NCBI GenBank assembly: GCA_024614665.1
Contig: GCA_024614665.1_4861.1
From: a phage
Strand: one strand, 5' to 3'
DNA: 64,000 bases
A program made the position numbers and the translations under genes. The notes beneath the pieces are model-generated. The model was not told where the DNA came from. It ran no database searches and was given only the letters and a program-made list of their open reading frames with translations. Below are positions 42,726 through 58,616 of this stretch, piece after piece (positions within the stretch are counted from its first letter, which is position 1; each line of letters begins with the position of its first letter).

Positions 42726-45700
42726 TTAGTTGATTTTAGCCGGCAAGGCTGGGACGTCTTCACCATCTAAGATGCGTCCGATGTTCTCCCCACCACGATA
42801 CCCGACAGCGTTGGTGGTTCCGATGCGCATGATAGAACCTACGATACGTGCGTCGACGGAATCACGACCAAAGATAATGTCGAGTTCCTGCCCGTCTTCC
42901 GTTTTGTTGGTTCCATACATCACTTCCTGAACCGTCGTTTTCAGCTGGTTAGCAATAACCATCTTATCCGCTGCTGCCATCTCTACCCGGTGTGTGATGT
43001 AGAATCGGACACACAGGCTATTGTACGCTAACGGCACCCCCTCAACACGAAAATCACCGTTGACTCGACCGTCCTTCGGCTCGTCACGTTTGAGAGCCAG
43101 CGCAGTCTTCCGACGTATACGGTCGTATTTACGAACCATCTCCGCCAAAGACGGGGTCATATCTTCCAACTCGCCGTGGTAAACCACTTCGATTTTGTCG
43201 ATAAACCCACGAACACCAGAGCGTGGTGCAAAGGAGCTTAACTCACGCAGCGTCTCCGCTGCTTCTTTACTGAACCCGCTCATATCGCCAGTCAGGTTGT
43301 CGGTGAAGGTGCATAGAATTGAATCCACGTCTACGTGGTCCCCTTCTTTTACCATCTCCAACAGGTTCTGGGTGAATGTCATTGTGACTTCTTTGAGTTT
43401 GGTAACATCGGCTTCGGCCTTAGCAGCGAACCGCTCACTAATGGCGTTGGAGTCCTCAATTACTTCTTCCCCTTCAATCAAAGCGACAGTTGCCAGTATC
43501 CCGTTTTTAAAACTGACCTGCGTTGGATCATAGATGTCTGGTTCAAAGTGTTGTTCGTTGTACGTGATAACGGCACCGGCAGGGAGTTTATCTCCGCGCT
43601 TCCATTTCGTTACCAGGGTGTGTGGGTAGTAAGTCCCTTCGTGCGGACCGAACCAACGACCCAGTGGGAAAGCTTCTTCCTCCCCGTCGTCGTATTTGAT
43701 TTTAACGTGGTCGTTAAGAACCTCCACAATCTTGCCAGGTTTATCGATTACGCGTGCGTGCTTCACAGAAGTACGGTGTGCCACGAACTTTTCTTGCTCG
43801 GTACGATACGGTGTGGTGGTTGCGCCAACACAACTGGTCGCAGAACCGAATTGAATCCCAACGAAGTTCTGACGCTTAGCATCGTCCATCAGGGTATCCG
43901 GCACCAAGCCATCAATAAACGACAGCGCCTCACCCGGCTTCAGTTTATCGAGGTCCTTTTTAAAGGTCGTGCCGTCCACGGTATCGTAGCGCGGGTTGTT
44001 TGTTGCAAAGGCGGTGATACCTACGTCGCCGTTATCGACCGTGTTACCGGAGACAATCCCCAGGTCGCTCGGTTGGAATTCACGGGTACTGTAGACCATG
44101 GTTTTGCGGTTACGACCGCCTGTACCGCCCATGGTAACGACATCCTTTTCTTTGATGTTCTGTACCGGGTTTGCGCCAGGTGCCAGCAAAACAGACGGGT
44201 CGGAGTTAATTGCACCCCACACCATGTCCTGTGTCAGCTCAAACTTACGATTCGAGTTAGGCGCGTTGTTGTAGTTACGCATCGCCCGCACCATCGCGGT
44301 GTAGATGTGATACGAAATACGTTGGTTCCCGATGAACATCATTTCGTCACCGTTAATTTCCGGTAACGTGTGGTCCGTCTGCAGCAGTTCGTTAGAACGC
44401 TCCAGTAAGCCGATAAAGGTTTCCGGCTCGCCCATTTTCCTGAGGATACGCGCGTGCATGTCGTCAACAAATGCGGTCCGCATCAGCTTCAGCTCTTTGA
44501 TGTAGCGTGGTGTTAGCCCATCTGCATCGCGTAACAGGTTCAGGTAAATGTCTTCCCGGTCAACTTCCGACTCGGTATACGTGGTAAAGTGTTTAATGTA
44601 ACGGTCTAAGCCGTTGACAATCATCCTCTGTTGATCGTTCTCGCAGACAATTGCAATTTTCGCATCCTGGAGACGAATAATGGAGTCGAACTGACCTTTA
44701 TCGATACGTTGTCCGACAGAGAGAACCTCGTAACTGATACCGAAGTGTTTCAACATCCCGGTTAATCCGAGATAGTACGCAAACACAAAGCCCAGCGAGA
44801 TTGATTTACCCATCAGTGACAATTCAGTCATTTCACGTGGAGCCTTAGCGGTGTCCACGCCAAAGACTTCGGCGAGTGTACCCAGTGGTTCGGTCTTATC
44901 CTTATCCACTCGATAGAGCTGGGAGTTTTTATCCATACCGACGATGACATGACTCCGCGGTTTCTTCGCCACAGGTACCAGCTCGACACGGTCCGCATCT
45001 GCCAGTTGCCCTTCGTTAAAGAATACCGCTTTCTGTTTAATGTCAAAGTTCCATTGGTACCCAATTGCGTTGAACGTTGCTACACGACGCGCTACTTCGG
45101 TATATTGGCGCGGCAGTTTAGACAGCGGATCGAACACATTCGCCAGTTTTGCATCAGTGATTTCGGTGTTCTTTGGATCGACTGCACGAGTAATAATCGC
45201 GTTAGTGAGCCAACGTCCGTAATCATTGACGACTTTATCGCTGCGACGGACAAAGTTCTTCCCGTAGGCAGTGGTTAACGCTACAGTATCGTGGGACACT
45301 TTACGGATAGGAACATCGACGCGCTGACGACGCATTGTATATTCCACACCATTTGCAACCCAAGTACCGTCTTCGGTTAATGCAGGAATTGAGAAACGTA
45401 CCGTGGTTGGTTCTCCGCCAATCGGCTGAATACGCAACGTGTGGTGTTCGATATTCCCGGTAACGGAAATCTCTTTCTCAACAGTGTGATTGTGAATCGC
45501 CAAACCGAGACGCTGAGATGACGCCACTGCACCCAGAACATCTTTCGGGAAGATTTCCTGGTTGTACTGACGAATGATTTGGTCGGTGGTATTTTCCGCC
45601 CAGGCTTCATCCGTAACTAAGCGTTCAATCTTCTTAGGCTCGGCTTTAACTTCGAGTTTCTTCGGATCAATGGTCAGACCTTCGCCGTACGTCTCTTTAG

Positions 45701-46931
45701 GATTGTACGGGTTGGGTAAGTTTACGAAACGTTTAGAAGATTCGTTCAGGAACTGATACGCTTTGGCGGTGACGCGGCCCGCTTCTGCCAGACGCTCAAC
45801 TTCCTGTTTAATCACAGCATCGTGTGGGATGGTGCGTTCTACGACGATGGTGGTTGGTTTGACATCTTCTTTCGGCGCTTCGATGACCAGATCTTCTTTC
45901 TCATCGAACTCATGATCGTTCAATGTGTCGTCGGCGTTGTCGCTTTGTGTTGCTTCATCGTCGACGATATCGAGGGTTTCTTCCGGTTTACTGGCAACGG
46001 TATCAACAGCATCGTCGTCCTCACCCAGATGTACGCGTTCGTCCCCTTCCGGTGTAACGAACTCGTCATCTTCGTAGTCGGTAGACGGCGGTGTGGTCAT
46101 CACAGTAGTCAGTGTACGGTAGAACATTCTGCCCATCTGCACGTCAGTCAAACGACCACCGGCAGACTTACGCATTCTTTCAATTACACCCATGTTCATG
46201 GATGTAAAACCACCGTTGTGCGTGAAGATAAAGTTCACACGTGACAGCTGGTTCATGTCCATACCGTCAAACAGGGTTGCTTGCTGATCGCCGTAAGCCC
46301 AACCGAACAGTTCCAGTAACCACAGGAGATTAAAGTCCTTAAAGCGCTCCAGTTTGGTTTTAACACGATCGTTATACGTCGTTTTAAAACGATCGAAAGA
46401 AGGCAGTACGTTACCCAGTTCGATGATGTAGTAGTTCTGACGCATGTACTCACGTGAGTCAGTTTTCATCTGGTTAGTTATCAGCAGCTGAATGTTGTGC
46501 AGACGTTCGTACCAGGACATCAGAGTATCAGGGTAGAAATAATGCGGCAGCATCGGGGTGTAGTTTTCGATGAGCAGCACTTTTGGATCGGAACGTACCA
46601 CGCCGTCTTCAATCATGCGACGAATACGACGGTTGTTACGATGGTACTGGAAGATTTGACGTTCTTGGCCAACAACCGGTTTCTTACGCGGATGGCCGAT
46701 AATGCCGTCTTCAGGCAGCTGGAAGTGGTGGCGAATCATCGCCGGTTTTTCCAGCTGGCCAAAACACGGTGTAGTTAACGGCGGCGCTAAAACCACCTGG
46801 TCTAAATCGATGGTGTGGTAGATAGAACCACGTGGGAGCTGGAGCTTCTCCAGCGGGATAATACGCGGGCGACCGAACTCATCGGTCTTGCGCACGGTAA
46901 AGCGCTGGTTAAACTGTTTCAGAAAAATCAT
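42726..46931 (-). CDS. multisubunit RNA polymerase beta-like subunit (1401 aa; N-terminal/central module with long acidic insertion)
   Basis: TMGGTGGRNRKTMVYSTREFQPSDLGIVSGNTVDNGDVGITAF resembles the bacterial beta Rif-region segment [44 protein letters not shown]; C-terminal GEMEVWAL-type region not present; adjacent to beta-prime N module. Confidence 0.55.
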   Translation of the reverse strand: MIFLKQFNQRFTVRKTDEFGRPRIIPLEKLQLPRGSIYHTIDLDQVVLAPPLTTPCFGQLEKPAMIRHHFQLPEDGIIGHPRKKPVVGQERQIFQYHRNNRRIRRMIEDGVVRSDPKVLLIENYTPMLPHYFYPDTLMSWYERLHNIQLLITNQMKTDSREYMRQNYYIIELGNVLPSFDRFKTTYNDRVKTKLERFKDFNLLWLLELFGWAYGDQQATLFDGMDMNQLSRVNFIFTHNGGFTSMNMGVIERMRKSAGGRLTDVQMGRMFYRTLTTVMTTPPSTDYEDDEFVTPEGDERVHLGEDDDAVDTVASKPEETLDIVDDEATQSDNADDTLNDHEFDEKEDLVIEAPKEDVKPTTIVVERTIPHDAVIKQEVERLAEAGRVTAKAYQFLNESSKRFVNLPNPYNPKETYGEGLTIDPKKLEVKAEPKKIERLVTDEAWAENTTDQIIRQYNQEIFPKDVLGAVASSQRLGLAIHNHTVEKEISVTGNIEHHTLRIQPIGGEPTTVRFSIPALTEDGTWVANGVEYTMRRQRVDVPIRKVSHDTVALTTAYGKNFVRRSDKVVNDYGRWLTNAIITRAVDPKNTEITDAKLANVFDPLSKLPRQYTEVARRVATFNAIGYQWNFDIKQKAVFFNEGQLADADRVELVPVAKKPRSHVIVGMDKNSQLYRVDKDKTEPLGTLAEVFGVDTAKAPREMTELSLMGKSISLGFVFAYYLGLTGMLKHFGISYEVLSVGQRIDKGQFDSIIRLQDAKIAIVCENDQQRMIVNGLDRYIKHFTTYTESEVDREDIYLNLLRDADGLTPRYIKELKLMRTAFVDDMHARILRKMGEPETFIGLLERSNELLQTDHTLPEINGDEMMFIGNQRISYHIYTAMVRAMRNYNNAPNSNRKFELTQDMVWGAINSDPSVLLAPGANPVQNIKEKDVVTMGGTGGRNRKTMVYSTREFQPSDLGIVSGNTVDNGDVGITAFATNNPRYDTVDGTTFKKDLDKLKPGEALSFIDGLVPDTLMDDAKRQNFVGIQFGSATSCVGATTTPYRTEQEKFVAHRTSVKHARVIDKPGKIVEVLNDHVKIKYDDGEEEAFPLGRWFGPHEGTYYPHTLVTKWKRGDKLPAGAVITYNEQHFEPDIYDPTQVSFKNGILATVALIEGEEVIEDSNAISERFAAKAEADVTKLKEVTMTFTQNLLEMVKEGDHVDVDSILCTFTDNLTGDMSGFSKEAAETLRELSSFAPRSGVRGFIDKIEVVYHGELEDMTPSLAEMVRKYDRIRRKTALALKRDEPKDGRVNGDFRVEGVPLAYNSLCVRFYITHRVEMAAADKMVIANQLKTTVQEVMYGTNKTEDGQELDIIFGRDSVDARIVGSIMRIGTTNAVGYRGGENIGRILDGEDVPALPAKIN

Positions 46932-46949
46932 ACATGTGCCTTATGGGTA

Positions 46950-48563
46950 TCATTTCAACAGCGCAGCAGTCGTTCTTTTAATCACGTTGTTAACCGGATT
47001 GATTTTGAAACTGCCGTCTGTTGCAAACCAGTAGTTTTTCGAACTGACCCACTTCCGATTTTCCTCGAGCGCTTCGGTTGACATCGGGCAGTTTGCTGAG
47101 CCGGTGTCACCATCGTAGTCACCACCCAATCCACCTAATCGGGATGGATGTGGTGCCATGGATTCCACAAAGGTTTTCACGGTACGGTCAGGGAAGCTAA
47201 TTGCACCCTTCTCTTTTAACGTGACCCAATCGTCTTCCAGTTCATGCAAATAGAGGGAAGAGGTGGTGGTCTCCAATCTTATGGTCGAGGAGTAAGTCGA
47301 ACCGCGTCCCGTAACCGGATAACGCGTGATGAACGAGAAGTAGTCATTCCAAATATCGTAACCTGACAAATAGAGGAGTTCTGCTAAGCTCAGTCCGCGG
47401 ACAAGCTTACGGTCACGTCCTTCCGGCAGGTCTTCAATATCGTAAAAGATTTTGAAGCTGCGTTTGTCCTGGTAGATTAATGCCACGTAATGGTCCGGAT
47501 CAATCATCAGCGGTTTATGTCGAAGCTCGCGCGCTTCCATTCTGTTGATGAGTGTTTCGATGCCATCGTCGGTAGTGAAAAGGTCATACACCCGCCCGGA
47601 GACTTCCAGGAACTCACGCTTGAGTGTTTTGGTGTTAACGCCGTATAAGTTGCCGTCCCCTGCCCGGATGTTACTGAGGTAACGTTCACGGATGTGGTAT
47701 TGAGCCACAGGCAGTAATGCCTTCAGGGTTTGGTACAAACCGATACGGGTATCCGTTGGACGAATCGCATCTTCGCGACCCATGACCTTGGAACCGGTTG
47801 AGAATGAAGACAGTACGTTACGCGTACCGTTCATTAACTTACGTGACGTCACTTTACGACGTGCAAAACCACCTTTACCGTCTTGGATGTTGAAAAAGTA
47901 CATCCAGATGTCATTAAAGGTTTGTTGGAGCTTCCAGCGAACCGGGTCAGTCAGTTCCGTTCGCGTACTGCGGTCGGGGATTGCACGTGCCAGAGAAATC
48001 AGACGGCGGTAGAGTCCGCCAATCTCTTCTTCTTGGTCGCGGCCATCCTGACGAATGACCAAATCACGTAATCCCGCAGGCAGAACCAGCACATAGCGGC
48101 TGAGACTGACCGGACGGAACTTATTGAAGAAATCGACTGTCTCGTCGCGACGCATTGATTCGTTGCGTCCTGGCGTCAGTTGTTCGTAGTAGCGTAGGAA
48201 GAAGTTGAAGCCGGTGTCTGCACCTTTATCACTGGGCAGAGCCGGCTCGAAATCTTTTTCTTTCTCATTCCAGATAGCGAATCGCTTCCCGGAACAGATT
48301 TCTTCGTACAGCTGTTTCAGCTGGAACAGTGCCAAACAAACGGTCGGCGAAATGATATCCAGTTTGATATCAATGTACGAGAACGTTGAGTCTCGTGCCT
48401 CGCTCCCTGTGAGGCCAAATATTTCAGTTGAATACAGTCCTTCAGGGTGAAAGTTTTTCGTCAGTCCCTGAAAGGTGTCTGTTGTTGTAACTGGTTTTAA
48501 ATGCGACACCAGGGACTTGTTGACGTTTAACAGGTAAAAGTCAACCCAGTTTAGCTTTCTCAC
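46950..48563 (-). CDS. multisubunit RNA polymerase beta-prime-like N-terminal module (537 aa; paralog with DYDGD)
   Basis: [35 protein letters not shown] matches [67 protein letters not shown] matches region B; [13 protein letters not shown] matches region C; GGDYDGD matches NADFDGD; no Zn-finger cysteines. Confidence 0.7.
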   Translation of the reverse strand: [537 protein letters not shown]

Positions 48564-48592
48564 TTTTAAGCTCCTGAATTGGAAGAAACATT

Positions 48593-51500
48593 ATGGCAAA
48601 AAGAGGCAAAGACGGTTTCGATGATATCGACTTAGATAGACTCGATGACTGGGATGATTTCGGTGAACCACCCCGTCCCAAAGACGAGAAAAAACGAAGC
48701 CCGATACTTAGTACCCTGAATGTTGCCAGGAAGTCGGCGTTGTCAACTATCTGGCCAGAAGGGAAACGCGACCAAGTTATCCTCAAGGGGATGCCTAAGC
48801 CGGCAGCTGATGCATACGAGGGCTATCAGTCAGCGGCAGCTGCAGCAAAGGATATTTACGCCCATACGAAAGGGGAGCTTGAGAAGACCGAGCGCACGCT
48901 GAAGATGCAAGCGCGCCAACTCGGTCCGACGATGAAGAAATACTTGCCTGATGCGGTTACTAAGCGCATCGACAAGTGGTCAAAATCTGACCAGTTGGAT
49001 TACCAAAATTACGATCCTAATCAGGCGTTGATGGATCGTGAACTGGGCGACGTTTTCTCAGGTGTGCCAAAGGACGCCGAAGAACAACGTCAGCTGCAGG
49101 ACAGCATGGTAGAGGATAAGCTCCGCGACAGCATCAAAGAGATGCGTGCGGATGCAATGCACCAAACCATGATTGGGATGGCGAAAGACATTAACCTGCT
49201 AACCGGGTTAAGCCGCGGGGTATTCTTAAACATCGAGCGTAAGAAACTCGAACTGCAATACCGTACCCTGTTTGCCATCCAAGACATCGTGAAGATGAAG
49301 CAGTCGGAGTTCGATCGTAATACGCCTGCTTTAGAAGCCATCGTGAAGAACACGGCATTGCCGGATTACGCGAAGGAAGATTTCTCAGAAGTCCGTTGGG
49401 CGAACGTTAAACGCCAGGCTGCGGAATGGATGAACCCGTTGCGGTATGCTGACGGGTTTATGGACATGATTCGCGAAAATACCAAGAAGAAAATTTCTGG
49501 TATATTTGGCGAAGGTCGCGGTTTGTTAGAATCTGTTCTCGGCATGGGCGTTGAAGATGATTTCGGCATGAGCGACAGCTCTTCGTTGACTGCTGAACGT
49601 CGCAAAACAAATGCTCGCGATAAAGCAACTGCATGGGGTAGCGGATTCCTTGCGAAGAAACTACTCGGTCCACAAATCGAGAAACTCCAGAAATGGACTC
49701 GCGAGGAGATGGAGAAAAATCCAGAGGTCATGAAACGCCTGCAGAAGGGCGCGTTCACCTTTGGTAATCTTTCCTCCATCTCGAACTCAGCCATCGCAGG
49801 CGAAACGCAAGGACCGTTGGCGGATTTGTTCCGGGTGCTGAATGAACTCGGTATTGTCCAACCGTTAAACCGTGAGAAAGCCTTCCTTGACGAACGTAAT
49901 GGCGAAACGTTAAGCCGTTCGGCGAAATTTGACCGTAAAGCATATCTTAGCCTGGTTGAAGTTATTCCTGCCTGGCTGGCAGAGATTAACAAATCTGTTC
50001 GTCGGGGTTATGGCGAACATGCCGACCTGGAATACGACATCACTAGTCGTGGGTTCGTAGACCGTAAAGTGGTCGGTAACCGCGTACGCAAGGCGGTTGC
50101 AAACGATGAACAACGCCTGCGTCTCCAAAATTCCATTAACAGCACTGTGGATTTTGTTGACCGCGGCAAAACGCTCTCGCAGAAGGATCGACAGCATCTC
50201 GCCGACTATATCGAGTCGCGAGCCTCGCAGGGCCGCGCATTCGACGTAGAAGCGATTCTGAAAGACCCGATGCATCTTCATCGGTATATGCCAGGAAACT
50301 CCGCAGAACGCATTAAGGAAGCCTTACAGGGGCATTCTGATAGCCTAACCGGTGGTAGTAACGAATTAAGTAACGAACTGGCTCGTAAAATCTCCACAGT
50401 ACAATCGTCTATCACCCAGCGTCAGGCAGTTATTGACGAAGCGGTGAACATTTACGGCGAACGTGCGCTGCGTGATGCAGGTATATTCAACTACGACGCA
50501 AAGAGTGACACCTTCGGCGTAGATAAAGACCTCTCCGATCCCTACACCTTGTTTAATGACTTGGCGATGGGTAAGACACGCAGTGGTCGTGCACTGACTC
50601 GTGACCAGGAGATTCAACGTAAACTGCAAAACGGTTCAGCGTTAGGCGACTACTTGCGCCGGATGAACCAAGGGGCAAATGGTGGTGTCGATGACACGTC
50701 GTTGCCGCCGGCTTTACGTGGCGGTGGTAAAGGCCGCGGAATGTCGCCTCGGCAGTTAGCCGCAGTTCTCTACGGTGAAACCTCGACTAACTTTGTTGAA
50801 TTGTTGAGTCAACGTAACCGCGGCGAAGAAGCACCACGGAATAACTTTGACGGCATCATCGAAGCGATTCGGGGTAATAACAACAGTGACACCCTCCAGA
50901 AAATTCTGGAACACGTCAGAAGTATGGACGAAGAAGGGGTTCTCCTGGCTTCGTTAGCAGGGGGTGCTGGTTCTGGTGACGAAGAGATGGGACCACCTCG
51001 TCCTGGTGGTGGTAGCGGTGGCGGTAAACGCCGCCGTATTATCATCGGTGAGGATGGGCTTATTCGTCGTTGGGGCGGTGTGTTGTTCGACACTGCAGCA
51101 GGAATCGGTGGCTTTGCAAAACGTGGTGTTAAAGGTGCCTGGAATAAACTGAATCAGTTCGGTGGCTGGGCACGCGGTAAAATCGCAGGGATGGGCGGCG
51201 GAGAAGGTCCTGGTTTCTTAACCCGGATGCGTGGCCTTATCAGCGGTAGTGTCCGTGGGGGCTTTGAAGCGGTAAGTTCCTTCGGTAAAGGACTACTGGG
51301 TATCCGCGACATTTACGATGACCACGGTAATGTTGTTCTGCAAGGTGCACGTCTGGAAGCTGGAGAATACTACCAGGTCATTGATGGTAAAATGGTTCAG
51401 CTGAAAACGCTGGACGACATCAAACTGGGGAGTGATATTGTTGACTCCGCAGGTAATCTGGTATTAGCAGCCGCTGACTTAGCCGCTGCGGGTAAACTCC

Positions 51501-54500
51501 GCTACTATAAAGGCGGGAAAATCCAAGCACTGACCCAAGGTCTGGCCAGTAAGATTGGCTTAGGCTTTAATAAAGTGGCTAAGCTACCGAAACGGTTCCT
51601 GGATTTCCTGTCGCCAAAAGCGGGCAGCATCGTTGGTAAGATTAAGGACTGGCTGAACGAGATTCCGGAAGGCGAAGAAAAGACACGTCTCCAGAAAGCG
51701 TTCAACCGCGTAACGAGCTTACCGGGTAAAGTGCTCGGTTTTGCGAAACGTGGTGTCGACCGTCTGAAAGACATGATTACCGACAACCCACTGACGCGTT
51801 GGTGGAAAGGCCGTAAAGATGGTGGGGGAGGTGGTTTCAGTCTCTTCTCATCGACCGGCAAGAAAACCAACCACATTCTTATCCGTATCTACAAACTGTT
51901 GAACCAACGTTTACCGGGTGATCCGGAAGACGAAAGTTGGACAGAAGAAATGGAGAAGGGTGTCGGTGGCGGTGGTAGTACGATCGGCCGTGCAGTTCGC
52001 GGGGCGTATAATCGTGCGAAAGCGTCATTGTCTGAACGTTTTGGTGGACGTTGGTCAAGAACAAAAGCGTTCTTTGGTCGTGGACGTGACCGCCTGCGTG
52101 GTTGGTTCAGTGGTTTCCGAGGCCGGGCTGGGGATATGCTCGATGGATATCGTGGAGCACGACACGACATTGCTACACGTTACGAAGTTGAACGTCGGTT
52201 GGCTGGACGTGATGATGATGTTGCTGAGTTTTATCGCAGTCATTTGAACGCGAAAGGTGGCCTTTCTGGCCGTAAAGTCTACGGTGATGCGAAGGAAGAC
52301 CTTGAGACCGCCCGTGATGCAGCAGGGAGAGTTATTAACAAAGGGAAGAATGCTGCCAAGTCTGCAGGTGCAAGATTGTTTGAACGCTTGGACCGAATGA
52401 TTGGCTTGCAAGAGATGTCGTGGTTTAACACCATGCGCGAATCAGTATCCCGTGCAGGTGGTGACGATGGCATTATTCGTACCATGTTTGCGAAGTTCGG
52501 TAAACGTAACAAGCCGCCTGAAGGTGATGAAAAACGCGACTACTTTAACTTCTTCAAACGTTGGCGTGAGAAACGTAAGGAGAAGAAAGAGAAAGCGCAG
52601 GGCTCCAAAGGGAAATCTGGCGGTCTGTGGGATATGGTGAAAGGCTTACCTATCATCGGTCCCATCGTCAGTATCTTGGGAACTGTGGGTAATATACTCG
52701 GTTCTATCACGAAATGGGGTGTGTTAAAACCCGTAGGCCTTTTAGGGAAGGCTGCGTGGAATGTTGGTAAGTTCGCAGTAACCCGCTTGGCGGCACCCGC
52801 GGTGTCCGCTGTGGCAACTGCGGCATCTGCCGTCGTGACCGCGGTGGGTTGGCCGGCAATTCTCATCGGTGGTGCGATCGCCGCGGCAGGTTACGCCGCG
52901 TACAAAATCGCAACGACTACCTATACCCAGTACCTGGATAAGATGCGTTTAGCTCAGTACGGTTTCCGTGATTACGATAAGTGGTCGTCGGACGACGGGG
53001 CGAAAGCGCGTTACTTAGAAGACGCATTGCGTGAGTATGTGTCTTACGCGGAAGATGGCCAAGCCAGTCTCCGTGGGCTAAGTGGAAAAGACGTTCAGAA
53101 GTTAGCTGAAGGATTCGGTATCAACGTTGAGGAAAAAGGCGAGATGTTGGCCTTCCAAGCGTTTATGCTTCAGCGCTTCATTCCGATTTATCTCCGTTGG
53201 ATTACGGCACTGAAATCAATGCCGAACAGTATCCAGTTGGCTGACGTCGGCGATGCGAAGAAAGTATCGAAAGAGGACATGCAGACACTCTTCAACAAAA
53301 TGAAGATGACTAAGGATGCAAAAGCGTTCTCTTCGTTAACTGACCCACGCAAAGTCAACCAAGGTTTCTTCTCGAAAGCTTGGGACGTTGTAACCTTTAC
53401 ACCGAAGGAGTTTTTGAGCGGTGAAGAGGTTATGGAAGTGCAGAATGAAGTCGAGCGTGCGATCAAGTTCAGAATGGACGATAAGAAAGCACGTAAGTAC
53501 GGAATGGCACCGGCCGTGGAGGGGATTAAATCCGCTGGCGTTGATGAAGCTATCAACAAACTCGGACAGCTGGATAACGAACGTAACAAAAATCTGGCGA
53601 AGGTAGAAGGTTGGGAAGACGGAACAGAGCAGGTTCAGATTCAGGTAGACTGGAATGCGGTGCTCGACCAGAAAGACATGAATGCGATGGAGTCGGTACG
53701 TTGGAAGACTTATGGTTTTACCACCATCGATAACGCCACTCGCACCATGATCACGGTATTCGAGAAGAACGTCATTAAGGACATTGACGTGAAAACCGCA
53801 AGCTACAAAGGAGATTGGAAGAAAGCAATCGCCTCGATGGTTCCAGACGCTATCGGTACACCGAAAGAAGATCGTTTGAAACGGTGGTTCTTTGACCGTT
53901 TCTTACCGGTATTCATGACGTATTTGGTTGGGGTGAAGCGTTACCTGCCAACAGCCGATCCGCTGAACTTGAAACTGACCGGCGGCTACCTGTACGAAAT
54001 CAGTCTGATGATGTCAACAGCCTACAGCTTGAAAGGCGGTATAAGACAGTCGGTGTGGGAAGTGAATATCAACCCATTAGGGGGTGAGGCTAACACGAAC
54101 CCATCGTCCATCAAAGCCGAACTGGAAACGCTGAAGCTGCTGTCAAAAGAAGCTGACCTTGCCGTGCGTAACATGATCAAAGCCATTAAAAATAATGGCA
54201 AGCGTGCACGCTGGAAGGATCGTAACAAGAACCGCAGTTCTCTGGAAGTCACCGGTGAAGATGATGAAGACTCGAACATCAGTTCGGGAGATTCTTTGTC
54301 ATCCGACGGTGCTCGCGCCTCAGGTTATATCCCAACGGGTACAAGCGGTGGCGTACCGGGTAACTTAGGCCAAGTCGTCGATGCGGTTGGTGGTGTGCGG
54401 AACTACGCTGCAATGACCACGGGTTCGTCTTCGATTAACCTGAGTGATGTGAAAGACGGTGATTATAAGTCACTGGCTGAAAAATACCCGATAGAAATGT

Positions 54501-55714
54501 TGGGTAGAAAGGGTGCGTTGAACGTTCCAAATATCAAAGCACTGATTACCGATGCAGCGAACATGATGGGCGTGCCACCTGCAGTGGCGTTAGCAATGGC
54601 TAAGGCGGAGTCTGGATTTAACTACACCGCTAAAAACCCGTATGCTTCGGCGTCTGGGTTGTTCCAGTTTGTTAACGGTACGTGGGACGGGATGATGAAG
54701 GGGTATTCGCGGAAGTTCGGTATTCCGCGTGTTAACCAGATGGACCCGTGGGCGAATGCTATATTGGGTGTACAGTTCATTCGTGACAACATCCAACAAG
54801 CACAACGTGACCTGGGTGGTAAAGCACCACCTCCAGCCGTGGCTTATTTGTATCACTTCCTGGGTGCAGGCGGCGGTAAGAAATTCCTGGAAGCATGGAA
54901 GCGTAATCCGAATATGGCGGCATCAAGTGCTCCTGGGATTACATCTGCAATACTGAGAGGGAATGCCAACGTCTTCTACAGCAACGGTCGTATACGTAGC
55001 GTAGACGGGGTTATTCAGGAACTGAACCGCCGCATGGGCGCAATTTCCGCCAACGAAGTCGCTGCCGATCCGAGTAAGACGAAGGATATGGTTGCAGGCT
55101 TGTCGCCTAATTCACCAACCAACCCGGCAGCAGCAATGGGTGCACCGGCCGCTAATGATCCGAGTCTGTCGCCAGCAGATAACCTGCCGGCAGATAATGC
55201 TAATCGTCGTGATGACGCATTGACGCAGAAAGGGGCCATGGCGGCACAAGATGCAATGGCTACCGCCGCAGGTAATGTAGGACCAGCAGCACCTACACCA
55301 ACTACAGGTGGTTCCGGAACATCCGATGCCTCAACAACAGCCGAAACCGTAGCGTCGCAAGCTGCAGCAGAAGGATTGTCTGCAACGGATGTTGCTAAAG
55401 TGAAAGCAGGCGCGGAAGCGCAGGTTAACGCAGCAGCTCGTCCAGTTGCCGCTCCAACTTCTGATGCTACAGCATCGACGCCAACGCTGAATGGTGACCC
55501 GATAGATGTTCAGCAGCTCAAGGTACTGATTCAGTCTCGCGATTACTTGAAAGAGATTCGTGATATTTTGAAATCAAATCCGAGAGCAGCAAACGACACG
55601 CGTGGTGGTAGTATCCAGCAAGCGGCAAATGTGGCTCCTCCGGGCTCAGCTGCACGCAGGCAGGAAATAACCCAACCGACACCGTCGTTAAACGTAAGTC
55701 GGAAAGCAAGCTAA
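48593..55714 (+). CDS. giant virion-associated protein (2373 aa) with lytic transglycosylase domain
   Basis: SLT-type motif AMAKAESGFNYTAKNPYASASGLFQFVNGTWDGM at about 54560..54900; multiple Gly-rich linkers, Arg/Gly-rich segment, long hydrophobic segment, Ala/Pro/Thr-rich C-terminus; AGGAG-like RBS. Confidence 0.7.
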   Translation: MAKRGKDGFDDIDLDRLDDWDDFGEPPRPKDEKKRSPILSTLNVARKSALSTIWPEGKRDQVILKGMPKPAADAYEGYQSAAAAAKDIYAHTKGELEKTERTLKMQARQLGPTMKKYLPDAVTKRIDKWSKSDQLDYQNYDPNQALMDRELGDVFSGVPKDAEEQRQLQDSMVEDKLRDSIKEMRADAMHQTMIGMAKDINLLTGLSRGVFLNIERKKLELQYRTLFAIQDIVKMKQSEFDRNTPALEAIVKNTALPDYAKEDFSEVRWANVKRQAAEWMNPLRYADGFMDMIRENTKKKISGIFGEGRGLLESVLGMGVEDDFGMSDSSSLTAERRKTNARDKATAWGSGFLAKKLLGPQIEKLQKWTREEMEKNPEVMKRLQKGAFTFGNLSSISNSAIAGETQGPLADLFRVLNELGIVQPLNREKAFLDERNGETLSRSAKFDRKAYLSLVEVIPAWLAEINKSVRRGYGEHADLEYDITSRGFVDRKVVGNRVRKAVANDEQRLRLQNSINSTVDFVDRGKTLSQKDRQHLADYIESRASQGRAFDVEAILKDPMHLHRYMPGNSAERIKEALQGHSDSLTGGSNELSNELARKISTVQSSITQRQAVIDEAVNIYGERALRDAGIFNYDAKSDTFGVDKDLSDPYTLFNDLAMGKTRSGRALTRDQEIQRKLQNGSALGDYLRRMNQGANGGVDDTSLPPALRGGGKGRGMSPRQLAAVLYGETSTNFVELLSQRNRGEEAPRNNFDGIIEAIRGNNNSDTLQKILEHVRSMDEEGVLLASLAGGAGSGDEEMGPPRPGGGSGGGKRRRIIIGEDGLIRRWGGVLFDTAAGIGGFAKRGVKGAWNKLNQFGGWARGKIAGMGGGEGPGFLTRMRGLISGSVRGGFEAVSSFGKGLLGIRDIYDDHGNVVLQGARLEAGEYYQVIDGKMVQLKTLDDIKLGSDIVDSAGNLVLAAADLAAAGKLRYYKGGKIQALTQGLASKIGLGFNKVAKLPKRFLDFLSPKAGSIVGKIKDWLNEIPEGEEKTRLQKAFNRVTSLPGKVLGFAKRGVDRLKDMITDNPLTRWWKGRKDGGGGGFSLFSSTGKKTNHILIRIYKLLNQRLPGDPEDESWTEEMEKGVGGGGSTIGRAVRGAYNRAKASLSERFGGRWSRTKAFFGRGRDRLRGWFSGFRGRAGDMLDGYRGARHDIATRYEVERRLAGRDDDVAEFYRSHLNAKGGLSGRKVYGDAKEDLETARDAAGRVINKGKNAAKSAGARLFERLDRMIGLQEMSWFNTMRESVSRAGGDDGIIRTMFAKFGKRNKPPEGDEKRDYFNFFKRWREKRKEKKEKAQGSKGKSGGLWDMVKGLPIIGPIVSILGTVGNILGSITKWGVLKPVGLLGKAAWNVGKFAVTRLAAPAVSAVATAASAVVTAVGWPAILIGGAIAAAGYAAYKIATTTYTQYLDKMRLAQYGFRDYDKWSSDDGAKARYLEDALREYVSYAEDGQASLRGLSGKDVQKLAEGFGINVEEKGEMLAFQAFMLQRFIPIYLRWITALKSMPNSIQLADVGDAKKVSKEDMQTLFNKMKMTKDAKAFSSLTDPRKVNQGFFSKAWDVVTFTPKEFLSGEEVMEVQNEVERAIKFRMDDKKARKYGMAPAVEGIKSAGVDEAINKLGQLDNERNKNLAKVEGWEDGTEQVQIQVDWNAVLDQKDMNAMESVRWKTYGFTTIDNATRTMITVFEKNVIKDIDVKTASYKGDWKKAIASMVPDAIGTPKEDRLKRWFFDRFLPVFMTYLVGVKRYLPTADPLNLKLTGGYLYEISLMMSTAYSLKGGIRQSVWEVNINPLGGEANTNPSSIKAELETLKLLSKEADLAVRNMIKAIKNNGKRARWKDRNKNRSSLEVTGEDDEDSNISSGDSLSSDGARASGYIPTGTSGGVPGNLGQVVDAVGGVRNYAAMTTGSSSINLSDVKDGDYKSLAEKYPIEMLGRKGALNVPNIKALITDAANMMGVPPAVALAMAKAESGFNYTAKNPYASASGLFQFVNGTWDGMMKGYSRKFGIPRVNQMDPWANAILGVQFIRDNIQQAQRDLGGKAPPPAVAYLYHFLGAGGGKKFLEAWKRNPNMAASSAPGITSAILRGNANVFYSNGRIRSVDGVIQELNRRMGAISANEVAADPSKTKDMVAGLSPNSPTNPAAAMGAPAANDPSLSPADNLPADNANRRDDALTQKGAMAAQDAMATAAGNVGPAAPTPTTGGSGTSDASTTAETVASQAAAEGLSATDVAKVKAGAEAQVNAAARPVAAPTSDATASTPTLNGDPIDVQQLKVLIQSRDYLKEIRDILKSNPRAANDTRGGSIQQAANVAPPGSAARRQEITQPTPSLNVSRKAS

Positions 55715-55723
55715 TCGTAGGGG

Positions 55724-57985
55724 GTGGCAACACCCCCTAATCATCTTACAGAGAGGTTTTACGTGGAAGCAAGACAACTAAAAGATTCAGGATGGGTAAC
55801 CGGCCTGTTTGGCGGTACAACCGCACAACGCGATGAGCGTTTCCTGGGTTTGCGTCGTTACTCTAACGCGATGCTCTCGTTTGAAGATACCACGATGGGT
55901 GGTTCGCAAGCGTTAAATGCGCCGCCGCAGTTTACGATGTTTGCTGATCCGAGTTCAACAGGTGCCTTTGCACAACCTGATGCAGGTCGTGGTTCGTACT
56001 CAAAGTACGTTAAAGGTCAAGACCAACGTGGTTCCTATCGTCTAGGGACTTTCTATTACGAAGCTATTAACCAAAACAGTTTTTATCTTCATTGTCGTTT
56101 CGGTAAACCTCGATATATCGGGGTCGCTGCATTCTTCGCGAATATGTACGATTCCAACCTAGCGTATCTGGCACGCACAGGTGATTACCCAGGTATGTTA
56201 CGTGCGATGGGGACGTATGTTGCCGCCGCAGCAATATGGGCCGCAGTAGGTACGGTTGCCTTTGCGGTTATTCTGATTACGCCACGTATGTTGAAGATGG
56301 TGCTGAACAAGCAGACTTCTCGCTACTACTACGTGAAACCGACAATGCACTTGTATCTGCGCGCTGTGCAGAATATGGTCAACACCCAGTTAGTTTATCG
56401 TCGATTAGTACCAACGGGTGTGTTAGGGACTTTCCAGCTTGCTAATGCTGTAGATGGGTCTGAGAAAGGCGGTACTGCTAATAAGTACAACGGCGACCGT
56501 AAAGAGTGGTACTCCATGCTGCCAGAAATCTGGACAGCTGATGGTGAGTTCGATATCTATCGAATGATTAACCGCTACCAAACTTTGGCCAACTACCAGG
56601 CGAAAACCATCGATAAGATTCGTAAAGAGTCGAGTAACGAAGAGGACATGGCTCGCCGTTTGCGAAACTTCTATCTGGAAGCGACGTACTCAACAACCCA
56701 TTTGGAAAAAGCTGCGCAGTACGAGGTTTCTTTACGTAACCTTGAATACGTAGCCAAAGCTGGTAAAGGGTACGATGCTGGTTTTGAAAACGTCGACAAC
56801 AAAGAAGACGAACTGGTAGCAGGGATGAATGGAAGCATTCAGGATGCTCAGTCACAAGGAGGTAAAGCTGAAAACTTCGAAAACGAAGGTGACGTGCAAC
56901 GTAAAGAGCTTGCCGATCGCATGGCGCAGGTTGAAAAGAACCAGGCTCAGGTTGCTAAAAGTCAGACTGAAGCAAACTCGATGGATGAGAACAATCTCGA
57001 CATTGGGAAAATTGAAAACTGGATGGACCAAGGTCAGAAAGAATCTGTCGGTAGCGTCTTTAAAGACTATATCGATATTTTAGATGGCGCTATGGATGGC
57101 CTAACTTCGAACATCGCTTCGGAGATACGTAACGGTTCGCAATGGATTACTTGGCGTGTTGATGGGCGCGATACCGTAGGGCGTTCGTTCTCCAACACCA
57201 CCAAAGAACCTGAAATCTCTGGCACGGTTAACTCCGCCACGCAGAAAGCACGTTCTTTGGAAGTAAACCTCTCCGGTGGTAAGACTGGTTTCGACGCAGT
57301 CGATGGTCTCATTACTGGGCTGAAGTCCGCCTTTACAGGCGCACTCGATTTCTTACATTTATCAGGGATTATGTCACTGTACAACTCGTCGGTGATTGAC
57401 TTCCCGGAAGTGTGGGACTCCTCAGACACCTCAGGTGACGATATCTCGCTAAGTATTCCCCTTCGCTGTTGGTCGGGTAATGACTTAGATGTGTTTCAGG
57501 ATCTGATTGTCCCGTTGTCGTTCTGGTTAGCGGCAGTTTGTCCGTTAGCAACCGGTAAACAATCGTTTACACACCCGTTCTATCTGGAGTGCTATTCTCG
57601 CGGTCGTTATTCCATGCGTAATGCCATGGTAACTAACCTGAGTCTCCAGTTCGGTACAGGTGGTTTAGGTTGGCGTGCTGACGGTCTGCCGTTGTCGTGT
57701 GATATACAGGTAACTATTCGTGACCTGTCGCGTGTTATGTACATGCCGATTGTAACTGATATTGGTGTGTTTGATGATGATAACAAGTTCAGTGAATTTA
57801 TGTCTGTGTTGGGCGCTGCCACACTTTACGAGCGTACCAACGGCATCGCGCAGGCTAAAATCAATGCGTCTATCTGGGCGCAGAACTGGGCAAGTGCTTG
57901 GTCGCAGGGTAGCATCGTCAACGCCGCCTTAGATATCATACCAGCCCGACAAATCGCGAACATTTTCCTACCACAAGCGCGTTAA
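55724..57985 (+). CDS. hypothetical protein (753 aa), likely virion-associated, with one hydrophobic segment
   Basis: ORF track; 9-nt spacing after the giant gene; hydrophobic stretch AAAAIWAAVGTVAFAVILI. Confidence 0.55.
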   Translation: MATPPNHLTERFYVEARQLKDSGWVTGLFGGTTAQRDERFLGLRRYSNAMLSFEDTTMGGSQALNAPPQFTMFADPSSTGAFAQPDAGRGSYSKYVKGQDQRGSYRLGTFYYEAINQNSFYLHCRFGKPRYIGVAAFFANMYDSNLAYLARTGDYPGMLRAMGTYVAAAAIWAAVGTVAFAVILITPRMLKMVLNKQTSRYYYVKPTMHLYLRAVQNMVNTQLVYRRLVPTGVLGTFQLANAVDGSEKGGTANKYNGDRKEWYSMLPEIWTADGEFDIYRMINRYQTLANYQAKTIDKIRKESSNEEDMARRLRNFYLEATYSTTHLEKAAQYEVSLRNLEYVAKAGKGYDAGFENVDNKEDELVAGMNGSIQDAQSQGGKAENFENEGDVQRKELADRMAQVEKNQAQVAKSQTEANSMDENNLDIGKIENWMDQGQKESVGSVFKDYIDILDGAMDGLTSNIASEIRNGSQWITWRVDGRDTVGRSFSNTTKEPEISGTVNSATQKARSLEVNLSGGKTGFDAVDGLITGLKSAFTGALDFLHLSGIMSLYNSSVIDFPEVWDSSDTSGDDISLSIPLRCWSGNDLDVFQDLIVPLSFWLAAVCPLATGKQSFTHPFYLECYSRGRYSMRNAMVTNLSLQFGTGGLGWRADGLPLSCDIQVTIRDLSRVMYMPIVTDIGVFDDDNKFSEFMSVLGAATLYERTNGIAQAKINASIWAQNWASAWSQGSIVNAALDIIPARQIANIFLPQAR

Positions 57986-58007: not shown

Positions 58008-58559
58008 ATGAGTTTATTTGGAAAGACCGCAAAAGAGCTGGTTTACGATCTCATCGTGTCTCAGAATCCTGGACTGACTGGTAAGGGCGTGACCATCGAT
58101 AAATTGTCGTTCGGTAACCCGGCACACATCACCGCAGCCGATCCTGACCCAGAGCAATACACCAGACTGAACACCAACCTTGATGTTTCTGGTATCATTG
58201 AGAAGGGTACGTTCGGTAAGATGGGTCTTACTTATCGACGATTGGACGTAGCACATTTGTTTGAGAACGTCGTGTTGTCTGTCGATGGCACCGGCGTGTC
58301 GACCGCTGCCGATCTTGTTCCCTTGCTGCGAACCAAATACAATTGGTTAATCGACGCAACCGAGATTTACGCGACAGAATCAATGACTTCCCCCACGAAA
58401 CACAATCTGCGTTTCAATGGAAAGTCGCTGGCGTGGACAGGTACGGTTGAGGTTTATTTGACCGAAGTTCCGAGCGATGGTGTCGATATCAGTAAACTGA
58501 TTACCGTTACTGAGTTGAACGGTTTGGTTTATGACGTTTCCGACATGGCTCAAGCGTAA
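58008..58559 (+). CDS. hypothetical protein (183 aa)
   Basis: ORF track; followed by terminator. Confidence 0.5.
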   Translation: MSLFGKTAKELVYDLIVSQNPGLTGKGVTIDKLSFGNPAHITAADPDPEQYTRLNTNLDVSGIIEKGTFGKMGLTYRRLDVAHLFENVVLSVDGTGVSTAADLVPLLRTKYNWLIDATEIYATESMTSPTKHNLRFNGKSLAWTGTVEVYLTEVPSDGVDISKLITVTELNGLVYDVSDMAQA

Positions 58560-58616
58560 CAAAAAAATAAGTAATGCGAGTACCCCTAACGGGGTACTCG
58601 TTTGCTTTTATTTTTA
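58560..58616. terminator. bidirectional rho-independent terminator
   Basis: Hairpin GAGTACCCC-TAAC-GGGGTACTC (58578..58599) with A-run upstream and T-run downstream; between convergent genes. Confidence 0.7.

Follow-up and report, generated by a model that had tools for sequence, protein, structure and literature searches.

The gene on the plus strand at positions 48593..55714 of the window, that is, of the whole 64,000-nucleotide stretch of phage DNA that was analysed, probably codes for the giant tape-measure-type tail protein of a jumbo phage resembling SPN3US, a protein that would be ejected, cut the cell wall and act on the membrane by the mechanism proposed below. By sequence comparison, the gene is the ortholog of those for SPN3US gp239 and phiKZ gp181. 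The protein has already been described as the tape measure of SPN3US-like Salmonella jumbo phages, tape measure protein being the name given to gp239 by the SPN3US authors, and it is no new gene.

Gene and Orthology

48593..55714, plus strand: complete gene, 2,373 aa, matching phrog_3201 over its full length (2463 bits)

The open reading frame starts with ATG, about 7 nt downstream of a GGAAG Shine-Dalgarno-like motif, and is the largest in the window, as an earlier reading made from the letters alone (hereafter, the sequence-only reading) had noted; the runner-up encodes 1,401 aa. The DNA is 98.2% identical to SPN3US_0239, and the protein differs from SPN3US gp239 in 12 of 2,373 amino acids (99.5% identical), the sole indel being Gly805. 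Because about 128 nucleotide differences (1.8% of 7,122 nt) give only 12 amino acid changes, the differences are necessarily mostly synonymous. The open reading frame is a genuine gene, and a chance ORF is ruled out.

SPN3US gp239 (259.1 kDa) is thus a practically identical protein with matching neighbours, has been found in virions and attributed to the tail, and shows no functionally notable differences. phiKZ gp181 (2,237 aa), a virion-associated peptidoglycan hydrolase, is colinear in BLASTP over the N-terminal region and again from the hydrophobic block onward to the C-terminal end, with 22-23% identity, the central part being too diverged for BLAST to reach. In addition, gp181 carries an SLT domain in the matching position and shares the flanking genes, gp180 for a divergent virion RNA polymerase (vRNAP) subunit and gp182 downstream. 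The sequence-only reading had missed both the tape-measure-type identity and the orthology with SPN3US gp239 and phiKZ gp181.

Domain Organization

The segments of the protein, all on the plus strand, are as follows.

48593..49627: acidic motif at the N-terminus (DDIDLDRLDDWDDF), then long helices, aa 1-345 (71% helix by AlphaFold2)
49628..50671: helical domain, moderate-confidence prediction, aa 346-693 (pLDDT 76-90)
50672..51301: Gly-rich, low-confidence, indel-prone linker, aa 694-903 (pLDDT <50; gap fraction at most 0.36 in homologs)
51302..51547: small beta-hairpin motif in two copies, aa 904-985 (DIYDDHGNV at 906, DIVDSAGNL at 948; AlphaFold2 and sequence pattern)
52001..52192: Arg/Gly-rich variable segment, aa 1137-1200
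52493..52630: polybasic stretch (KRWREKRKEKKEK...), aa 1301-1346, directly preceding the hydrophobic block (residue counts)
52631..52912: Gly/Ala/Val/Ile-rich hydrophobic block, aa 1347-1440, with 2-3 candidate membrane-spanning segments (hydropathy)
52913..54172: conserved helical domain, confident prediction, specific to the gp239/gp181 family, aa 1441-1860
54173..54376: disordered linker, acidic and then Ser/Gly-rich, aa 1861-1928 (pLDDT <50; identity 0.12 among homologs)
54377..55132: SLT-type lytic transglycosylase domain, aa 1929-2180 (Pfam SLT)
55133..55711: Ala/Pro/Thr/Ser-rich spacer and then C-terminal helices, aa 2181-2373 (colinear with the phiKZ gp181 C-terminus)

The N-terminal half, about 1,350 aa, is predicted to be largely alpha-helical; its first 1,200 aa are 61% helix in the prediction and include long helices. 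The module conserved most widely is aa 1-345, in which the KNTxLPDYxK motif at aa 252-261 is invariant and the invariant alignment columns are K252, N253, L256, P257, K261 and E266; it matches residues 26-297 of phiKZ gp181 and also gp81 of Bacillus phage AgentSmith (E=3e-15). A Foldseek search with the N-terminal fold gave nothing significant and no globular match, the best hits being coiled-coil or stalk proteins at non-significant E-values, and a search of aa 346-693 against solved structures gave no match. The Gly-rich and RG-rich spacers described in the sequence-only reading are evident from composition, with 30 Gly per 100 residues at aa 801-900 and 11 Arg and 10 Gly per 50 residues at aa 1151-1200. 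Indels among homologs fall in these variable segments, of which aa 1137-1200 is conserved least (identity 0.13-0.21, gap fraction 0.44-0.47). The beta-hairpin motif region is kept in many homologs, some of which add about 66 residues immediately downstream; a BLASTP self-comparison of aa 851-1100 was negative for internal repeats, the two-copy motif being seen only as a short pattern.

The hydrophobic block, which had been put at roughly 90 aa, was found at aa 1347-1440, where the Kyte-Doolittle hydropathy exceeds 1.4 in two segments, 1351-1373 (maximum 1.79) and 1399-1440 (maximum 1.91). It contains LPIIGPIVSILGTVGNILG at 1352-1370, AILIGGAIAAAGYAAYKI at 1422-1439 and 14 small-xxx-small motifs, and residues 1301-1350 at its front are Lys-rich (13 Lys, net charge +10). 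Nearly all homologs have one such block at 55-62% of their length; it starts at residue 1247 in the Goslar ortholog and at 1297 in phiKZ gp181, where it is weak (maximum hydropathy 1.22). AlphaFold2 gave no confident helices or other structure for the block.

The C-terminal half is composed of folded domains in the AlphaFold2 models. The SLT catalytic motif picked out by the sequence-only reading lies where the domain search that it had proposed finds Pfam SLT (PF01464, residues 1984-2072, E=2e-9, 37.4 bits against a gathering score of 21.3). The predicted catalytic Glu2006 (nt 54608-54610) is in the ES motif of ESGFN (2006-2010), and G2022-L-F-Q-F (2022-2026) provides the G-L-x-Q motif; these align with ES and GWFQF of phiKZ gp144. 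Across 33 homologs the Ser never varies and conservation of the catalytic Glu reaches at least 90%, and the domain has a lysozyme-like (goose-type) fold. The C-terminal domain is a genuine SLT-type lytic transglycosylase by sequence and fold, with its reaction chemistry predicted. The endolysin gp144 (PDB 3bkh, 9xps), a second, paralogous SLT protein in phiKZ that serves as neck wedge, is a free-standing enzyme of 260 aa with an N-terminal peptidoglycan-binding domain, whereas the SLT domain described here is embedded near the C-terminus of a structural protein. Beyond it, the Ala/Pro/Thr-rich tail of the earlier description was recovered as 84 Ala, Pro, Thr or Ser residues out of 150 at 2151-2300, and a nearly invariant Arg is found near the C-terminus.

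Furthermore, a review (PMC5380687), with reference to Briers 2008, gives phiKZ gp181 a muralytic activity of 60,000 U/mg. Homologs replace or supplement SLT with other wall hydrolases (GH19, M23, VanY) at the matching position, and this swapping or addition argues that the module is selected for wall cutting.

Location in the Virion and Gene Neighbourhood

The expectation of a virion protein was borne out in SPN3US by mass spectrometry (MS), with a mean of 570 peptide-spectrum matches (PSMs) for gp239 in virions vs 2.7 in tailless heads (PMC10052503, Table S2); these head particles retain gp240 and gp241 and lose gp239 (PMC10052503). By these gp239 data, the 2,373-aa protein is a tail component, probably of low abundance. 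The PSMs per kDa, semi-quantitative as spectral counts are, were 2.2 for gp239, 1.4 for gp238, 15 for the tube and 33 for the sheath, and the gp238 homolog gp182 is present in 6 copies in phiKZ (PMC13250141). Given presence in virions and the reported muralytic activity of phiKZ gp181, neither absence from virions nor want of wall-degrading activity, which the sequence-only reading had named as counting against it, was found.

The neighbouring features are as follows.

46950..48563, minus strand: divergent neighbour, virion RNA polymerase subunit, SPN3US gp240-like and phiKZ gp180-like (phrog_2986, E=3e-238; phiKZ gp180, E=5e-77)
48564..48592, no strand: divergent intergenic spacer of 29 bp containing both ribosome-binding sites
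55724..57985, plus strand: downstream gene, SPN3US gp238-like, 753 aa, phiKZ gp182 homolog (BLASTP E=1e-40)
58008..58559, plus strand: third operon gene, gp237-like, 183 aa, DUF7941 (Pfam, E=1e-26)
58576..58601, no strand: strong hairpin terminator closing the gp239-gp238-gp237 unit (11-bp stem, 7 GC pairs, T-rich tail)

The gp238-like gene begins 9 bp 3' of the 2,373-aa gene in one operon, and its phiKZ homolog gp182 forms the "spacer", a hexameric ring placed between the tube initiator and the hub (PMC13250141). The 2,373-aa gene is co-transcribed with a baseplate ring gene. Both SPN3US gp238, the gene for which is reported to be essential, and gp237 are tail proteins by MS, and the gp237-like protein has no similarity to phiKZ gp184. 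A sigma-70 promoter scan of the operon gave 5 sites vs 10.1 in shuffled sequence, a scarcity to be expected of genes that a phage polymerase transcribes. The gene neighbourhood is common to phiKZ, Goslar, RSL2, Halocynthia phage JM-2012 and Bacillus phage AgentSmith. The succession of the 2,373-aa gene and the spacer-ring gene has a parallel in the order 29-48-54 in T4. The head-to-head arrangement of the gene and the RNA polymerase genes, which the sequence-only reading had singled out, is real and deeply conserved, but the polymerase subunits are head proteins and the 2,373-aa protein is a tail protein, so that adjacency is no evidence of a physical or mechanistic connection.

Comparison with Tape Measures

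Several properties expected of a tape measure are present, since the protein is a tail component absent from heads in the SPN3US MS data and its gene lies beside the spacer-ring gene; an extended, mainly alpha-helical character is found in the N-terminal half alone. Among 207 full-length relatives, protein length keeps to a constrained range of about 2,100-2,700 aa, and identity falls to about 22% in one set of homologs. No Pfam tape-measure family matched at E-values up to 1, the hits being of SLT type only, and an NCBIfam scan gave nothing relevant, just sub-threshold SLT-like hits. The sequence diversity of tape measure proteins is notorious. No tail assembly chaperone genes of the lambda G/GT type, in which frameshifting is programmed, lie upstream, where the divergent vRNAP subunit gene is found. 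Such frameshifted genes are not universal, T4 having none.

The full chain would reach about 3,560 Å if each residue spanned 1.5 Å, and the phiKZ tube measures about 1,620 Å. The full-length values are 0.73 Å per residue for phiKZ and 0.80 for Goslar, so the canonical proportionality of about 1.5 does not hold; counted up to the hydrophobic block they are 1.25-1.44, nearer to the canonical value. Moreover, the Goslar tube is 11% longer than that of phiKZ while its ortholog is only 0.7% longer, and the pre-block segment is likewise unscaled. This mismatch, which comprises two data points, weakens simple proportionality but is compatible with a ruler segment. Equating the ruler with the pre-block segment (1,346 aa x 1.5 Å = 2,019 Å vs a 2,000 Å tail) was tried and rejected; because the phiKZ/Goslar comparison fails to scale, it is kept as a loose possibility. 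No published SPN3US tail length was found in the literature searched. The tube lumen is about 40 Å by estimate, which may leave too little room for the confidently folded domains of the C-terminal part. A "double-length" chain, in three copies or folded back, might conceivably fill the lumen to about the density of six ordinary tape measures.

Alternative Explanations

These length relations bear most directly on the explanation that the protein is a tail-internal or baseplate-associated conduit and lysin that is ejected and is not a ruler, its size being the sum of conserved domains and tail length being set otherwise. A value per residue of half the canonical one, the lack of length scaling between phiKZ and Goslar, the predicted folding of aa 346-693 and 1441-1860 as domains and not as a continuous coiled coil, and the absence of a tape-measure Pfam match all speak for it; but the narrow length range across the family is what a ruler predicts, a probably low copy number, helices in the N-terminal half and a spacer-ring gene next door suit a tape measure, and the SPN3US, phiKZ and Goslar papers examined name no alternative tape-measure candidate. 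We regard this explanation as rather unlikely, with perhaps one chance in five. An older view of phiKZ gp181 would place the protein at the baseplate centre: with reference to Briers 2008 and Fokine 2008, a 2017 review (PMC5380687) lists gp181 as a putative trimer and "needle-like cell-puncturing device". The 2026 phiKZ structure, however, assigns spike, tip, hub and spacer to gp164, gp163.1, gp101 and gp182 (PMC13250141), and the AlphaFold2 models have no beta-helix or OB-fold spike domains, so that this view has become very improbable.

The tail fibre identity given in GenBank records and PHROG 3201 ("putative tail fibre protein") is scarcely credible: neither a fibre-like fold nor a receptor-binding domain is predicted, the protein contains an enzyme domain together with long helices and a hydrophobic block, the fibres of phiKZ consist of gp131-family proteins, and the label looks like a size-based annotation carry-over. 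The adjoining vRNAP genes could also suggest a head-packaged ejection protein like T7 gp16 (internal core, SLT domain), delivered together with the polymerase; yet tailless SPN3US heads keep gp240 and gp241 and are almost devoid of gp239, which leaves hardly any probability for it.

Proposed Mechanism and Precedents

As a tape-measure-type protein, a few copies, probably three, would lie inside the tail tube, with the C-terminal part anchored at the tube-initiator, spacer and hub end and the helical N-terminal part reaching toward the neck, where it may help to fix or stabilise tube length in assembly. On sheath contraction the spike complex would depart and the protein would be expelled before the DNA; the SLT domain would then make local cuts in the glycan strands, and the polybasic stretch and adjoining hydrophobic block may engage the inner membrane and open or line a passage by which DNA and head-packaged proteins enter. 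The searchable literature yielded no experiments with phiKZ-like phages on ejection, membrane insertion or length mutants (deletions or insertions).

Ejection and envelope crossing, which the sequence-only reading had suggested, are a reasonable supposition by analogy with T5 pb2 and lambda gpH: lambda gpH* was proposed as a trans-envelope channel, and T5 pb2 is released upon tube opening (PMC12617516). T5 pb2 and the tape measure proteins of TM4, phiIPLA35 and P23-45 (gp96) are likewise long and tail-internal, with a helical ruler, membrane-active or hydrophobic segments and a wall-degrading domain, although no sequence homology to the 2,373-aa protein was detected. The latter differs from the T5 pb2 type in that its lytic domain is an SLT and not a metallopeptidase, its phage has a contractile tail and a spike distinct from it, and its length-to-tail ratio is about half. 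It resembles lambda gpH/gpH* in its Gly-rich region, its candidate membrane segments and the channel across the periplasm that is proposed to form after ejection; however, gpH has 853 aa, six copies and no enzyme domain and is cleaved near its C-terminus, whereas the mature weight of SPN3US gp239 is listed as the full 259.1 kDa (SPN3US Table S4).

The inner tube of phiKZ has been seen attached to the early phage infection (EPI) vesicle, a defining feature of nucleus-forming jumbo phages, according to a 2026 review. It is conceivable, though we consider it improbable, that the polybasic stretch and hydrophobic block (aa 1301-1440) go beyond making a pore and couple the tip of the tail tube to the inner membrane, and that the giant tail protein thereby seeds the EPI vesicle, in which case incoming DNA and head proteins would inflate a sealed membrane invagination. 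No link between a tape measure protein and the EPI vesicle was found in the searchable literature.

Significance for the Family

The gp239/gp181 family is described in neither of the two 2026 virion structure papers, although nucleus-forming jumbo phages have no larger protein: the main text of the 2026 phiKZ atlas nowhere mentions gp181 or a tape measure, nor does the Goslar preprint mention a tape measure or tube lumen. SPN3US amber-mutant genetics make questions about this protein, a 2,373-residue chain in a tail of about 200 nm, testable. The family is large and uniform in architecture, and the gain for annotation is that the widespread "tail fibre" label is corrected to that of a tape-measure-type, wall-cutting tail protein of SPN3US-like phages.

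The Giant Tail Gene and Its Product

The largest open reading frame of the window, at 48593..55714 (+), encodes 2,373 amino acids, exactly as the sequence-only reading had described; its ATG start lies about 7 nt downstream of a Shine-Dalgarno-like GGAAG. Over the full length its DNA shares 98.2% identity with SPN3US_0239 from the Salmonella phage SPN3US, a member of the genus Seoulvirus. There are 12 differences between the protein and SPN3US gp239, one of them a Gly indel at 805, so that with about 1.8% nucleotide divergence the substitutions must for the most part be synonymous. The match to PHROG 3201 scores 2,463 bits, the database labels (GenBank records, PHROG) read 'tail fibre protein', and the SPN3US literature names gp239 (259.1 kDa) the tail tape measure protein. 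Earlier publications already report the gene, place its product in the tail, assign it as a tape measure and describe the lytic domain.

That reading had also described a mosaic of low-complexity spacers, a hydrophobic block and a lytic transglycosylase (SLT) domain. All the low-complexity, hydrophobic and motif features were recovered by composition and hydropathy along the protein, and the SLT domain was found by domain search.

Features of the giant protein (amino acid positions; gene on the + strand)
801-900: Gly-rich, 30 Gly per 100 residues
904-985 (51302-51547, +): two-copy motif, DIYDDHGNV...GEY and DIVDSAGNL...LRY, predicted β-hairpins
1151-1200: Arg/Gly-rich
1301-1350: Lys-rich stretch, net charge +10
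1347-1440: hydrophobic block containing both peptides quoted in the sequence-only reading; Kyte-Doolittle means 1.79 and 1.91 in two segments
1984-2072: Pfam SLT, above the gathering threshold
2006-2010: ESGFN
2022-2026: GLFQF
2151-2300: Ala/Pro/Thr/Ser-rich region

The 2,373 residues include no cysteine, and homologs longer than 2,000 aa have 0-6; this absence may be related to the oxidising periplasm, either to passage through it or to function there.

Predicted Structure and Family Architecture

AlphaFold2, run with an alignment of 33 diverse homologs, predicts 61% helix for aa 1-1200 (mean pLDDT 57.8), with long helices across aa 37-420, a helical domain at about 350-690 with moderate confidence, Gly-rich linkers at 694-903 with low confidence and a small β-hairpin pair at 905-980 overlapping the two-copy motif, and structural search with this N-terminal model gave no significant match. 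Just 3' of the motif, after aa 1026-1050, many homologs have about 66 extra residues, where the family consensus contains a motif resembling DIYDDHGNV / DIVDSAGNL, and the number of hairpin-motif units may thus vary among homologs. In the model of aa 1300-2373 (mean pLDDT 70.9) the hydrophobic block has no confident structure and is followed by a confident helical domain (1439-1859), a disordered linker (1864-1923), a confident SLT domain (about 1929-2180) and C-terminal helices. Structural search with the domain at aa 1441-1860 gave no convincing match; it has 361 protein matches among 1.84 billion cluster representatives, and the full-length proteins among the 150 matches listed are giants with the domain at the same relative position. 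Among solved structures, phiKZ gp144, a known endolysin (PDB 9xps chain S), is closest to the SLT domain.

The family set comprised 93 close-to-distant homologs, with identity to the window protein down to about 22%, and 127 further representatives, giving, among the matches listed, at least 207 full-length sequences with a median length of 2,368 aa (interquartile range 2,259-2,454). Nearly all homologs have a single hydrophobic block at 55-62% of their length. In the homolog alignment, conservation peaks at aa 226-275, 451-500, 901-925 and 1451-1475 and in the SLT core, and gaps and insertions are concentrated in the Gly-rich, Arg/Gly-rich and Ala/Pro/Thr-rich segments, which therefore act as adjustable linkers. 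The lytic module is swappable between family members: SLT is the commonest, GH19 occurs in some members including that of Ralstonia phage RSL2, SLT is combined with peptidase M23 in one homolog and with VanY in the protein of Bacillus phage AgentSmith (second part of a split gene), and Pfam finds no lytic domain in the ortholog of Goslar.

Counterpart in phiKZ

BLASTP against phiKZ gp181 gave colinear matches of aa 12-267 to 26-297 (E=1e-12), about 438 onward to 460 onward (E=1e-4) and 1383-2349 to 1297-2219 (E=3e-30). The flanking genes also agree, with gp180, a virion RNA polymerase (vRNAP) subunit, divergent upstream (E=5e-77 to its window counterpart) and gp182 downstream (E=1e-40). A review (PMC5380687, citing Briers 2008) reports a muralytic activity of 60,000 U/mg for gp181. 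Its description in earlier work as the cell-puncturing needle (PMC5380687) is superseded by the baseplate assignments of the 2026 phiKZ atlas (PMC13250141): spike gp164, tip gp163.1, hub gp101 and spacer gp182. The atlas main text mentions neither gp181 nor a tape measure, and the Goslar virion preprint mentions neither a tape measure nor a tube lumen. The atlas places gp144 as six 'wedge' copies in the neck between whisker and sheath; with gp181, phiKZ virions thus have two different SLT-type proteins.

Location and Copy Number in the Virion

The sequence-only reading had found the product consistent with an ejected protein that crosses the envelope and cuts peptidoglycan, and its presence in virions is clear from published mass spectrometry of SPN3US, which assigns gp239 to the tail (PMC10052503).

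Mean PSMs in SPN3US whole virions and tailless am107 heads (PMC10052503 Table S2)
gp239: virions 570; heads 2.7; Tail
gp238: virions 116; heads 1; Tail
gp237: virions 91; heads 4; Tail
gp240 (vRNAP): virions 166.7; heads 180.7; Head
gp241 (vRNAP): virions 441.7; heads 375.7; Head

PSM/kDa is 2.2 for gp239 and 1.4 for gp238, against 15 and 33 for tube and sheath, respectively, and phiKZ gp182, the gp238 homolog, has six copies in the atlas. The closeness to gp238 suggests that each virion has a few copies of gp239, spectral counting being semi-quantitative only. In addition, for a lumen about 1,700 Å long and of an assumed width of about 40 Å, our arithmetic gives about 45% filling by three copies and about 90% by six, which favours about three copies in the tube if the whole chain is inside.

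Tape Measure or Ejected Lysin

The analyses show a low-abundance tail protein whose N-terminal half is helical and which also contains a conserved hydrophobic block and a genuine SLT domain; its gene shares an operon with that of a baseplate ring. A tape-measure-type model as a whole is probable. If it works like T5 pb2 and lambda gpH (PMC5380687, PMC12617516), the protein would lie inside the tail tube, help to determine tail length, be expelled after contraction, cut peptidoglycan locally and engage the inner membrane.

Several results stand against a simple ruler. At 1.5 Å per residue the whole protein would span about 3,560 Å, against tube lengths of about 1,620 Å in phiKZ and 1,800 Å in Goslar (phiKZ atlas; Goslar paper); the Goslar tube is 11% longer, whereas the orthologs have 2,252 (Goslar) and 2,237 aa, and the hydrophobic block, at 1247 in Goslar and 1297 in phiKZ, does not shift with tube length. 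Furthermore, Pfam and NCBIfam scans gave no match to curated tape-measure families. Because of these results some weight goes to a tail-internal ejected lysin and conduit without a role in setting tail length, which is nevertheless rather unlikely, and the tape-measure-type model is held with no more than good confidence. A tie between the tape measure protein and vesicle formation is unlikely, and no such link was found in the searchable literature.

Operon and Divergent vRNAP Neighbour

The giant gene is followed at 9 bp by the gp238-like gene and, after a further 22 bp, by the gp237-like gene.

Features of the operon
55724-57985 (+): gp238-like gene
58008-58559 (+): gp237-like gene, 183 aa, DUF7941 protein (Pfam E=1e-26), in the SPN3US tail by mass spectrometry
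58576-58601: strong hairpin terminator, 11-bp stem with 7 GC pairs, closing the gp239-gp238-gp237 unit

DUF7941 proteins are a family specific to these phages and form flexible filaments anchored at the baseplate (2026 Goslar preprint). Terminator scoring picks out the hairpin on both strands, with convergent genes on its far side, and a promoter scan of the operon showed no enrichment of sigma-70-type promoters.

The start codons of the giant gene and the divergent vRNAP subunit gene are 29 bp apart (48564-48592) with both ribosome-binding sites inside, so the promoters of both genes must lie within the opposite coding region or be very compact; the corresponding gap in RSL2 is 28 bp. GC skew and AT skew flip sign at about 46-48 kb, GC skew going from -0.006 (44001-46000) to +0.18 (52001-54000), and the change coincides with the switch from minus- to plus-strand genes (44000-50000).

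The window pairing, 42726-48563 (-) with 48593-55714 (+), was compared with five other loci (L002-L006), and the head-to-head arrangement also occurs in phiKZ, Goslar, RSL2, Halocynthia phage JM-2012 and AgentSmith, where two parts of 1,044 and 2,081 codons make up the split giant gene. The Goslar record (L003) has an annotated group I intron ('Intron_gpI', 8224-8652) between genes upstream of the giant tail gene, in the region of the virion RNA polymerase genes. The placement, called notable in the sequence-only reading, is therefore a real, old and conserved synteny, but as the polymerase is in the head and the giant protein in the tail of SPN3US, adjacency alone does not prove a mechanistic link. 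Thermus phage P23-45 has its virion RNA polymerase fused to the tape measure protein, so that the association of vRNAP and tape measure is worth recording.
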